The notes under the pieces are model-generated. The model did no database searches. It had not been told where the DNA came from and saw only the letters and a list, made by a program, of their open reading frames with translations. DNA of 64,000 nucleotides. It comes from an uncultured Candidatus Saccharibacteria bacterium. GTDB lineage: Bacteria > Patescibacteriota > Minisyncoccia > Phycocordibacterales > UBA9973. Every line of letters starts with the position of its first letter. Position 1 is the first letter of the stretch. Location of the stretch: NCBI GenBank assembly GCA_964645245.1, contig CAZYBS010000003.1:9366-73365 (forward strand). The letters run 5' to 3'. Position numbers and translations under genes: made by a program. This document shows, one piece after another, positions 6,286 to 8,394 of the stretch.

Positions 6286-8394
6286 ATGGATAAATTAAAA
6301 GTCCGGAAAAGAATAAAGAGCTTACGAAGCGAAATCACACGGTTGAGGAGTGCGTATCACGTCGCAAATGCGCCTAAGGTTACTGATGATGTCTACGACT
6401 CCTTAACTCGTGAGTTGAGAGCGTTATTACAAAAATATCCCCAAAAAGATTATAAGCCTGACGATATCAATGCGCCGGAAAATAGGGTAGCGGGCAAACC
6501 ACTTGATAAATTTGTCAAAGTGAAACACCAAATTAGGATGCTTTCTTTAAATGACGCTTTTTCATACGAAGAGCTTTATAATTGGGAGAAAAGAGTTAAA
6601 AAACTTTTACCGCAAAATGCCAAGTTTAACTATTTTTGCGAAGTAAAATTTGACGGATTGGCAGTTTCACTTATTTATAAAGATGGTAAATTTGTTCAGG
6701 GTGCAACTAGAGGGGATGGATTTATCGGCGAAGATATAACTCAAAATCTTAAAACTATAAGTTCGATTCCACTTGTTCTAGACCCCCTCCCGGCCTCCCC
6801 CTTAGCAGGGGGAGGGGTTGTTCCAAAATTTCTGGAAGTTCGCGGCGAAGCGCTTTTGAGCAAGAAAACATTGTCAAGGTTAAACCTTGACAATGAGAAA
6901 AAAGGCAGGCCACTCTTTGCCAATACTAGAAATGCCGCCGCGGGAAGTCTTCGTCAGCTTGATCCAAAGTTAACCCTTGAAAGACATTTGGATTTTATTG
7001 CTTATGATATAGCCTCGCCTGATGCTCTCACCACTCACTCTGCTAAGCATGAAATACTTCGCAATTTAGGATTCAAGGTTGAAAAACTAGAAGCTAAATG
7101 TAAAAGCATAGAAGAAATAATTACGTTTATAAAAAAGTTTGAAAAAATAAGACCGAATTTTCCATATGGCACAGATGGTATCGTAATTTCCGTTGATAAC
7201 TTGAAACAAGAGGAAATACTAGGCGTGGTTGGAAAAGCTCCGCGTTTTATGGTCGCATTTAAATATCCGGCTGAAAGAGCGACGACCGTAGTGCAAGAAA
7301 TTTTAGTTAACGTTGGGCGCACTGGAGTGCTCACGCCGCTGGCAGTTTTTGAGCCGACGCTGGTCGCGGGTTCCAGAGTATCCAAAGCGACTTTGCACAA
7401 CATGGACCAGATAGAGCGTCTTAATTTGCGTATCGGGGATACGGTGGTAGTAGAAAAAGCAGGTGATGTTATTCCAAAAGTTGTAGAAGTGTTGATTCGC
7501 CTGCGTACCGGTAAAGAGAAAAAATTTAAAATGCCGACCCATTGTCCAGCCTGTGGCGGTAAAGTGGAGAAAAGAATCACCACCCCCGATCCCCTCCTCA
7601 ATAAGGAGGGGAGGAATTCCTCTCCCCCTGCTAAGGGGGAGTACCAAAGGGGAGGGGGTCTTTCGGTTGCATACTATTGCGCTAATTCAAAATGTCCGGC
7701 CAAAGATGAAAGATATTTAGAGCATTTTGTATCTGTCTTTGAAATATATGAGTTAGGTCCAAAAATTTTAAGACGATTTAAAGACGAGGGCTTGATAACC
7801 GACGCGGCAGATATTTTTGCTCTTACAGAAGAAGATATTGCTCCCTTAGAGCGTTTTGGAGAAAAATCAGCCGAGAATATTATCAAAGAAATAGAACATA
7901 AAAAGAAAATTCCACTTTCAAAATTTCTTTGGGCGCTTGGCATTCTGCATGTGGGAGAAGAGACAGCGCGAGATCTTGCCCTTCATTTTGTCACTTTGCA
8001 AAATGTCATCAATGCCGGTATTGAGAAAATAAATGAAATAGAGAATATCGGCCCGGCAGTGTCCAAAAGTTTATATAATTTTTTCCAAGATAAAAATAAT
8101 TTAAATTTTATAAAAAAACTGCAAAAAAATGGCGTGGTGATAGAAAAAGCAGAAAAGAAAAAAAGGGGGAGGTTCACAGGACTCTCTTTCGTGCTGACAG
8201 GCACTTTATCAACGATGTCTCGCGATATGGCTAAAGAAAAAATCATTGCGCAGGGCGGCAAGGTAGTAGGCTCGGTATCTAAAAACACTTCTTATGTGGT
8301 GGTGGGAGAGGAGTCTGGCTCCAAACTGAAAACTGCGGAGAAACTGGGCGTGAAAGTAATCAATGAAGAAGAATTTTTGGAAATGCTAAAATAA
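6286..8394 (+). CDS. ligA: NAD-dependent DNA ligase LigA (carries two in-frame GC-rich hairpin inserts)
   Basis: KxDG adenylation motif ([12 protein letters not shown]), [12 protein letters not shown], the Zn-finger pair CPACGG...CANSKCP, HhH and C-terminal BRCT ([10 protein letters not shown]). The track ORF starts at TTG 6241; first ATG is at 6286. Confidence 0.9.
6781..6818. repeat. Family A element, partial inverted copy, in-frame in ligA (encodes [13 protein letters not shown])
   Basis: gaccccctcccggcctcccccttagcagggggagggg. The 19-mer tcccccttagcagggggag equals the reverse complement of the tail of the 7578-7660 copy. Confidence 0.7.
7578..7660. repeat. Family A element, full copy, in-frame inside the ligA Zn-finger region (encodes [28 protein letters not shown])
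   Basis: caccacccccgatcccctcctcaataaggaggggaggaattcctctccccctgctaagggggag... The first hairpin is identical to the intergenic copy at 936-1020. The second hairpin differs by compensatory changes (CTCCCCC/GGGGGAG versus CTCCTCC/GGAGGAG). Confidence 0.75.

Follow-up and report, generated by a model that had tools for sequence, protein, structure and literature searches.

Tagged GC-rich palindromic repeats lying in frame in ligA of a Patescibacteria genome: probable selfish elements of the REP/RPE kind

The Rickettsia palindromic elements (RPEs; Ogata et al. 2000) are presented, in two later accounts (PMC10969869, PMC3733652), as several palindromic families that are frequently inserted in frame into unrelated functional genes, at positions compatible with the protein fold. 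A second group of described repeats comprises the repetitive extragenic palindromes (REPs), with the bacterial interspersed mosaic elements (BIMEs) and REPINs. These are hairpins of 20-40 nt with an unpaired conserved tag at one end, which combine head to head or tail to tail into larger foldable structures and lie mostly 3' of genes; intragenic REPs in replication and repair genes have also been described in other bacteria (PMC3733652). Bacterial MITEs (ERIC, BOX, Correia, Nezha and others), or miniature inverted-repeat transposable elements, are small, non-autonomous, bounded by terminal inverted repeats and occasionally intragenic, adding peptides to host proteins (PMC10969869, PMC2229807), and in the mitochondria of Nematomorpha long near-perfect inverted repeats are tolerated in translated genes (PMC6649704). 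Here we report on a 64,000-nt stretch of contig CAZYBS010000003.1 from an uncultured Candidatus Saccharibacteria bacterium (hereafter the window), in which the gene for NAD-dependent DNA ligase, ligA, contains two GC-rich palindromic segments. The source, which we take to be a groundwater bacterium with a tiny genome, falls in the Patescibacteria or candidate phyla radiation (CPR), whose tiny, streamlined genomes are thought to carry little selfish DNA. GC-rich hairpins that invade AT-rich compact genomes, coding regions included, are familiar from fungal mitochondria, as GC clusters and double-hairpin elements. Each of the ligA segments is probably a copy of a GC-rich, non-autonomous repeat, palindromic and of the REP/RPE kind, that is selfish in nature and translated as a disordered loop. 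The host gene, its two inserts and the intergenic copy of the repeat are the following.

6286-8394, + strand: ligA, NAD-dependent DNA ligase, 702 aa; an intact host gene that retains the KxDG motif of adenylation and every one of the four cysteines of the zinc finger.
6781-6819, - strand (orientation of the element): insert 1; 39 nt, 13 codons, 74% GC.
7576-7659, + strand: insert 2; 84 nt, 28 codons, 61% GC; a full doublet element with tag ATCACCACCCCC (7576-7587), hairpin 1 (7591-7611), hairpin 2 (7622-7641) and, last, a decayed hairpin 3 with closing GGGGGT (7642-7659).
935-1020, + strand: intergenic full copy, directly 3' of the stop codon of a PilC-like (T2SSF) gene; tag ATCACCACCCC (935-945), TTG, hairpin 1 (949-969), AGGAATCC, hairpin 2 (979-1000; CTCCTCC..GGAGGAG), hairpin 3 CGCCCGAAGGGCG (1001-1013) and closing AGGTGGT (1014-1020).

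The three copies are tied together by exact matches. The 21-mer CCCCTCCTCAATAAGGAGGGG is found at both 949-969 and 7591-7611, where shuffled sequence leads one to expect 0.00 matches, and the 19-mer TCCCCCTTAGCAGGGGGAG at 6796-6814 on the + strand and 7622-7640 on the - strand (0.01 expected). Overall, 935-1024 and 7576-7663 are identical at 76 of 92 positions (83%), rising to about 87% over the first 60 columns; a reading of this DNA from its letters alone (the sequence-only reading) had already regarded 7578-7660 as a copy of 936-1020. Its proposal that 6781-6818 matches the reverse complement of the element's tail is borne out too. Insert 1 corresponds to the element's 3' half, reversed relative to the copy at 7576 and read in frame on the + strand, and its reverse complement agrees with the 3' half of insert 2 at 36 of 43 positions; it is made up of the hairpin CCTCCCCC-TTAG-CAGGGGGAGG plus the closing bases GGGG/ACCCC. 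The GC content of insert 1 is 0.74 and that of insert 2 is 0.61, compared with 0.394 in ligA minus the inserts and 0.40 in the window, so that the range of about 65-75% GC once given for both segments fits the first and only parts of the second. Both full copies fold well beyond their shuffles (z = -4.5 for 935-1020 and -2.9 for 7576-7659), the intergenic one as a closed three-hairpin structure with a folding free energy (dG) of -50.4. Insert 1 gives z = -0.3 in a 61-nt frame and z = -2.9 as a 48-nt segment.

Comparison of the window copies with LigA loci and with 53 stretches of other genomes that hold the tagged hairpin (see below) yields a basic unit, composed of an unpaired tag, (A)TCACCACCCC or alternatively TCACCTCACCCC, a spacer of 2-4 nt, and a hairpin of 8-10 bp with a polypyrimidine 5' arm (CCCCTCCT...AGGAGGGG). 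Type a units have the tag CCACCACCCC, 2-4 nt and the polypyrimidine/polypurine hairpin; in type b units an extra small hairpin, GCCC-TTCG/TACG-GGC (general form GCCC-NNN(N)-GGGC), stands between the tag and the main hairpin. The element of about 85 nt is a doublet, in which two REP-like units face in opposite directions. Units are arranged singly, tail to tail (the window copies, L004, L042, L051) or head to head (L014, L017, L022, L027, L031, L039, L046). Terminal inverted repeats read ACCACC / GGTGGT in the window copy and AATCACCACCCC / GGGGTGGTGATT in L004, where a full copy lies reversed and in frame within an unrelated open reading frame (ORF) of 207 aa. A covariance model made from nine full copies and run over the window recovers two full copies only, at 96 bits (935-1020) and 86 bits (insert 2), with a weak match at insert 1. 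It also matches 1624-1650 (16.4 bits, E = 0.006), within a further feature.

1618-1655, + strand: terminator-like hairpin AAAAAACCACCCC-TACA-GAGGTGGTTTTTT after the first pilin gene, with a 15-bp perfect stem.

The stem of this hairpin (ACCACCCC / GAGGTGGT) equals both termini of the element, with the interior replaced by TACA. It may represent a minimal or relic element, a coincidence, or a hairpin of the sort that gave rise to the element by growth.

The ligase itself matches E. coli LigA (2owo) at E = 4e-153 and shows 100% identity with that of 'Parcubacteria group bacterium Gr01-1014_24'. The inserts are absent from E. coli LigA and from the other solved LigA structures. Insert 1 corresponds to a 9-residue gap after H160 of 2owo, in the nucleotidyltransferase domain, while insert 2 accounts for some 25 extra residues between R417 and A422, inside the zinc finger and between Cys408/411 and Cys426/432 (E. 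coli numbering), precisely where the sequence-only reading had put it. In an AlphaFold model built on an alignment of 120 sequences (mean predicted local distance difference test, pLDDT, 82), residues 433-459 of the zinc-finger insert are predicted as coil with pLDDT below 50, between two intact strands of the zinc ribbon, and residues 164-181, around insert 1, as coil of reduced confidence (block mean about 63 for 171-180). The surface-loop position foreseen for insert 1 thus agrees with both the 2owo alignment and the model. C420, C423, C465, C470 and the KxDG motif are invariant across 120 of 120 LigA orthologues, whatever the loops contain; the gene therefore seems functional, with the inserts as apparently tolerated loops at the surface. 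Apart from the inserts, a perfect 12-bp stem with a 3-nt loop (CATTGTCAAGGTTAAACCTTGACAATG, 6869-6895) lies inside a conserved part of ligA that shows no length change relative to E. coli; chance would give about 0.02 hairpins of this kind in 64 kb.

The orthologues show how variable these loops are. We aligned 120 LigA homologues (69-75% identity, 665-766 aa) by MAFFT and retrieved DNA for 8 + 80 = 88 LigA loci, each recovered independently. The inserts are missing from about half of 200 orthologues at 61-79% identity, and the two segments are lineage-variable insertions, as expected from the earlier claim that canonical LigA lacks them. Four regions of low occupancy emerge (window protein numbering): after residue 112, 167-177, 245 and 430-453. 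At the insert-1 site some insert is present in 55 of the 120; P0059, P0066, L060 and L069 share the window's insert 1, and elsewhere the site holds, depending on the lineage, a window-type half element or the reverse complement of the 5' unit (hairpin plus CTAGGGGTGAGGTG). Slightly more than half of the 120 carry an insert at the zinc-finger site, the remainder reading, for example, EKRELPAQKSVAFYC or KIEKKEDLV. This insert is in P0004 and P0010 the canonical three-hairpin element, nearly base for base the intergenic window copy. Decay by internal deletion is seen at the same site, P0018 having an internal deletion and P0078 the 5' half only. PF03119, the zinc-finger model for the ligase, does not appear among the listed domains of any orthologue whose zinc-finger loop has a long insert (at least 28 residues); among the others it appears for some whose loop is empty, short or strongly divergent.

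Taken over the four hot spots, the 120 + 88 orthologues contain 125 distinct inserts, with 48-55% GC in genes of 39% GC. The mean fold z at the four sites is -2.6, -4.5, -6.2 and -6.4, and z lies below -2 in 81-97% of the inserts at three of them. Every one of the 125 is in frame and free of stop codons, and a single reading frame runs through all inserts in 88 of 88 loci, the sole defect being found in L107, where a nonsense codon stands in place of a conserved Gln outside the inserts. The inserts belong to many unrelated palindrome families, recognizable by marker peptides such as KNSSALLHPAGGTFREKNF, SSSSKGPRFSGAPNPGQTISHRTL, RSDLKNSKRSDL, LVVGVPSGTPTTKL and GHPMSTWTSDV. One family may occupy different hot spots in different lineages, and in the metagenome LigA locus L132 the RSDLKNSKRSDL-type family is found at all four hot spots of one gene. 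Insertion polymorphism is evident among close relatives, LigA pairs with 84-94% identical cores differing by the clean presence or absence of an insert (L123/L130, L078/L091, L086/L106, L070/L074, L109/L111). In one Nomurabacteria-like contig an ORF of the LAGLIDADG type follows immediately 3' of ligA (L056, 2460-2706).

The stems of the inserts covary. In the window family (nine full copies) 96.3% of cells pair, and five pairs have changed on both sides, against 1.2 ± 0.9 in shuffles, of which 0 of 500 reach the observed number. The SSKGPR family at the zinc-finger site (five copies) has 12 of 36 pairs doubly changed (5.0 ± 1.5 in shuffles, 0 of 500), and slid controls give at most three. The compensatory change in hairpin 2 that had been read as a sign of selection on the hairpin is real. 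It is, however, a single event (T-A to C-G, column pair 55-67) common to the window and one orthologue, and selection is not proven by it; covariation alone is no proof of selection on an RNA hairpin. Moreover, 95% of stem pairs are Watson-Crick (2314 against 124 G-T, counted on the sense strand) and folding is slightly better for the antisense than for the sense strand (p = 0.01), so that the data do not point specifically to a hairpin in the mRNA. Between carriers of the window-type zinc-finger insert, nucleotide identity is 0.775 in the insert, 0.713 in the ligA core and 0.469 at third codon positions; the disordered loop is thus far better preserved at the nucleotide level than synonymous sites. 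Such a pattern would fit a constraint on the DNA itself, repeated re-insertion from master copies or conversion by them, or quasi-palindromes corrected on a template, and maintenance as DNA or templated correction is as possible as selection on a hairpin.

The tagged hairpin is widely distributed. A scan of 596 Gb, with one genome per species, located the tagged 21-mer (CCACCACCCC tag) in 53 stretches from at least eight phyla, where about 0.3 matches are expected by chance. Carriers include Nomurabacteria/Paceibacterota, metagenome-assembled genomes (MAGs) labelled Saccharibacteria, Acidobacteriota, Verrucomicrobia, Ignavibacteria, Beta- and Gammaproteobacteria (Thiomargarita among them), the complete isolate genome of Pedobacter sp. 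KLB.chiD and others, and a Bacteroides gut MAG has at least 17 copies. The tagged-hairpin family is not specific to Patescibacteria. A scan of viral contigs for the 21-mer gave 0 matches, and blastn of the element against plasmid and phage records gave none. Rfam assigned no family to the inserts at gathering threshold in the window and five loci, and at a permissive threshold (E up to 10) only sub-threshold matches to miRNA-like hairpins were obtained at the elements. A concatenated 58-aa query for the insert peptide in other host proteins had no scored match, and phmmer with a 30-aa insert had 0 matches among 1.84 billion representatives, likely because the query is short and biased in composition, so that this search says nothing on distribution. 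The copies differ in setting among the carriers. In the Thiomargarita MAG the tagged hairpin forms a tandem array with a period of 38 nt, in Pedobacter sp. KLB.chiD three copies lie about 130 nt apart, and in the Bacteroides gut MAG head-to-head doublets occupy intergenic spacers about 3.7 kb apart (the loci L025 7280-7460, L029 4189-4475 and L035 are listed jointly for these three cases). L005, L018 and L049 each have a single tagged hairpin that precedes, by about 20 nt, the start codon of one and the same gene (MKAFLKNYRQ...), presumably that of ribosomal protein L22; the AAGGAGGGGAGGAA arm of this hairpin resembles a Shine-Dalgarno sequence.

The sequence-only reading is confirmed in its observation and supported in its interpretation, and the phenomenon is larger than it had claimed, since to the four LigA hot spots and their many families are added inserts in rpoB and dnaG. 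These two, and candidate hairpins in further genes of the window, are given here.

33942-34038, + strand: rpoB, GC-rich multi-hairpin insert of a second family (...SAKGATPAGGQGPASPASPSEAGRAGWEE...), in frame; about 25-30 residues extra relative to solved RpoB chains.
40848-40924, + strand: dnaG, insert of the second family (...FPASAEGGSASPASPSEAGRAGG...), in frame; extra relative to solved structures.
12902-12930, + strand: UvrD-type helicase/PD-(D/E)XK nuclease gene, candidate hairpin, in frame and from a third family, 96% complementary to an inverse copy; its relatives are the inverse copy in mreC (54629-54675) and an intergenic copy (48555-48599).
56661-56695, + strand: DUF192 gene, candidate in-frame double hairpin TTTCCGCCCAAGGCGGATTCGCCTCTGGCGGAGA; 115 residues are matched to 95 profile positions, and an intergenic relative lies at 1696-1730.

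The rpoB and dnaG inserts are 93% identical over 45 nt (repeat family D16), with a common core GCCTCCCCGGCCTCGCCAAGCGAAGCGGGGCGGGC and an outer stem TTTTCC/GGAAAA. Of all 80-nt windows of the 64 kb the most stable falls on the rpoB insert (33921-34070). The other three of the top four lie on the intergenic copy and on the inserts in dnaG and in the zinc finger of ligA, and each of the four exceeds RNase P RNA and the group I intron in stability.

In the probable scenario, the tagged elements and several unrelated palindrome families would spread within and between these genomes, moved in trans by an enzyme or by a hairpin-dependent DNA process. Copies landing in essential genes would persist only if in frame, stop-free and placed in a tolerant surface loop, where they add 10-45 residues, and LigA would supply four such permissive loops. 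The surviving copies would then be translated as disordered loops rich in P, G, S, L, E and R, neutral for ligase function, and would decay by point change and internal deletion. Several observations weigh against this scenario. The 64 kb hold just two full copies plus one half copy. Searches by tblastn with approximate queries over 474 kb (the window and 61 loci) gave no credible match to RayT or IS200 TnpA, and comparisons of filled with empty sites gave no consistent target-site duplication. That the inserts are translated is something we infer. The zinc-finger insert occurs at an identical site and in the same frame in scattered branches of a poorly resolved tree, and could therefore reflect one ancient insertion and many losses rather than repeated insertion. 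Finally, some 'empty' alleles (ELPxQxSV, EISEKKEKSV and the NFLPNL of L070, at hot spots C and Zn) resemble one arm, the right one, of palindromes occupying that site in close relatives (L070, L111 and L091 versus L074, L109 and L078). Either these alleles are footprints left by deletion of one arm, or an arm of host sequence was duplicated in inverted form as the palindrome grew in situ. We favor footprints because the arms of one family resemble each other across sites; if so, palindrome turnover leaves lasting additions of 4-6 residues. Some candidates were discarded in the course of these searches. The tblastn match in L027 lies inside glyA and that in L004 in an unrelated ORF; inverted tag pairs 1-4 kb apart enclose ordinary genes and no transposase; and an apparent target-site duplication 'NSIP...NSIP' in P0004-type inserts was dropped because AAT is part of the terminus of the element and the repeat is not followed by the expected host sequence.

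Growth in situ deserves attention as an account of the palindromes as a whole. Intrastrand template switching at quasi-palindromes, or conversion of one arm by the other, might lengthen a short hairpin core and keep it perfect, in which case the 'element' and its 'compensatory' changes would be largely by-products of replication and repair and owe little to transposition or selection. The strand symmetry of the stems, their 95% Watson-Crick pairing and the slightly better antisense folds all fit such a process, as do the conserved cores with outer stems that vary between orthologues yet remain complementary, and the likeness of right arms to the empty sites of relatives (L074/L070, L109/L111, L078/L091). 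Yet it leaves unexplained why the same core with its unpaired tag recurs at unrelated sites, in intergenic DNA and in eight phyla, and the arms of one family are alike at different sites and so look element-borne. We therefore regard it as a possible but doubtful alternative, best viewed as a complement to a mobile origin and not as a substitute. A host function is a weaker contender still, and on balance unlikely: intergenic copies would protect 3' ends or terminate transcription, or the hairpins would mediate regulated pausing or serve as recombination or uptake signals, genic copies being exapted. In its favor, the intergenic copy after pilC is retained at the same genomic position in four genomes (with L009, L019 and L044), L005, L018 and L049 share a single unit immediately upstream of one ribosomal-protein-like gene, the 21-mer is identical across phyla, nucleotide conservation exceeds the neutral level, and REPs have been reported as RNA elements downstream of genes (PMC3733652). 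But close relatives vary in presence and absence at every LigA site, which argues against a required role in the gene, and no T-run follows the intergenic copy 935-1020. An uptake signal we reject, the tag occurring just twice in 64 kb.

The remaining two alternatives concern the coding region. The inserts could be intervening sequences at the RNA level, the closing stem being recognized and the hairpin either cut out of the mRNA or skipped by the ribosome, with the result that the peptides are never made. The closing stem does begin within a few nucleotides of each insert boundary and covaries, the small hairpin of type b has UNCG-type loops (TTCG, TACG) on the tag-forward strand, and the inserts rank above RNase P RNA and the group I intron among the stable structures of the window. 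Removal nevertheless seems very improbable. It would not lead one to expect that 125 of 125 distinct inserts are multiples of three and stop-free, nor that 88 of 88 loci keep one frame; the orientation and frame used fit the avoidance of stops, the other two frames of GGGGTGAGGTGAAT containing TGA; the sense strand has no folding advantage; and Rfam returns no intron or ribozyme match at the inserts. Ordinary lineage-specific loop expansion or low complexity, with hairpin potential as a side effect of GC-rich Pro and Gly codons, is hardly credible. It agrees with P/G/S-rich peptides that are predicted to be disordered and with insert 1 alone, which in one 61-nt frame folds no better than shuffles. 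It is contradicted by the intergenic copy and the covariation counts: identical nucleotide sequence stands outside genes and in both orientations, the exact 19- and 21-mers have chance expectations of at most 0.01, 81-97% of inserts at three hot spots have z < -2, and the nucleotide identity of inserts is above that of synonymous sites.

The mobile palindromic repeat that we prefer can now be set beside the described systems. The analogy with RPEs, drawn from the sequence alone, proves apt (PMC10969869), the repeat being present between genes, in both orientations and in other genes. Here too several palindrome families are found both between and inside the genes of a small genome; genic copies stand in frame in unrelated, functional and often essential genes, at loop positions compatible with the fold and with the host ORF intact; and no transposase is known. 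In contrast, the present elements measure 39-90 nt (RPEs, about 100-150 bp), are GC-rich in an AT-rich genome, consist of tagged hairpin units that also occur singly, one of them common to at least eight phyla, and reside in Patescibacteria; it is by length and architecture that they are set apart from RPEs. With REPs, BIMEs and REPINs they share the hairpin of 20-40 nt with a conserved unpaired tag at one end, the head-to-head and tail-to-tail pairing into larger structures and a position mostly 3' of genes (PMC3733652). They differ in the tag, CCACCACCCC in place of GTAG or CGTC, in polypyrimidine/polypurine stems and in far commoner genic insertion, and neither a RAYT nor a TIRYT gene was found near any copy. 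Like MITEs they are bounded by terminal inverted repeats; compared with MITEs they are smaller and almost wholly self-complementary, and neither a target-site duplication nor a parent insertion sequence was found. In Nematomorpha both arms of the palindromes encode conserved protein segments instead of extra loops, and the setting is organellar (PMC6649704). The GC clusters and double-hairpin elements of fungi, likewise, are organellar and do not belong to a bacterial chromosome. Inteins exceed 130 aa and have Hint blocks, whereas the inserts are of 13 and 28 aa; no catalytic RNA fold of a group I or II intron is recognized by Rfam; and bypass of the byp kind would free the insert from constraints of frame and stops, whereas all inserts are stop-free multiples of three. 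The elements are thus a new family of the same kind as RPEs and REPs and a member of neither, since they have no GTAG or CGTC tag, no RAYT is in evidence and they are shorter than RPEs. Full-text literature searches yielded no description of such elements in CPR/Patescibacteria, in accordance with the novelty first claimed for Patescibacteria-like genomes.

The significance of these repeats lies in their scale (four hot spots, many families, several essential genes), in the streamlined CPR host and in the hairpin common to several phyla. Genes of replication and transcription (ligA, rpoB, dnaG) have been repeatedly invaded by palindromes that are apparently translated, and the identity of the tagged hairpin across phyla points to a recognition system or a mobilizing enzyme yet to be found. 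Were the pattern genome-wide, it would explain many odd insertions and 'lost' Pfam domains in CPR proteins, PF03119 being an example, provide a natural map of permissive loops in essential enzymes as well as markers for strain-level population genetics, and carry the Rickettsia paradigm, that of selfish DNA residing in coding genes, over to another bacterial radiation, a very large one. We put forward, tentatively and with the chances against it, that the CACCCC-tagged polypyrimidine hairpin represents a third, hitherto unnamed REP-like superfamily beside GTAG and CGTC, spread across phyla by a mobilizing enzyme or a hairpin-dependent DNA mechanism, and that much of the loop insertion, and of the one-arm footprints, in essential Patescibacteria proteins still stems from it and the other families. 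If so, insertion and decay of palindromes would be a principal mode of protein-length evolution in these reduced genomes.

Some further structures of the window were noted. Rfam places a group I intron at 61028-61278 (58 bits), followed at 61295-61316 by a sequence like a tRNA T-arm, GGTCGTAGGTTCGATCCCTACC; ARAGORN called no tRNA at 61295-61316, and the whole of 61028-61316 may be an intron-interrupted tRNA gene. At 60457-60504 a GC-rich 11-bp hairpin (GCCCCTCTGCTCGCGAGCAGAGGGGC) abuts and overlaps the start of tRNA-Ala (60394-60467, - strand), part of whose sequence is repeated beside it (repeat family D14). An ORF of 531 aa (3052-4647), part of a type IV pilus cluster that includes pilC, two pilins and a prepilin peptidase, combines long Gly-rich GGN repeats with a tandem repeat rich in Tyr, Pro and Thr.

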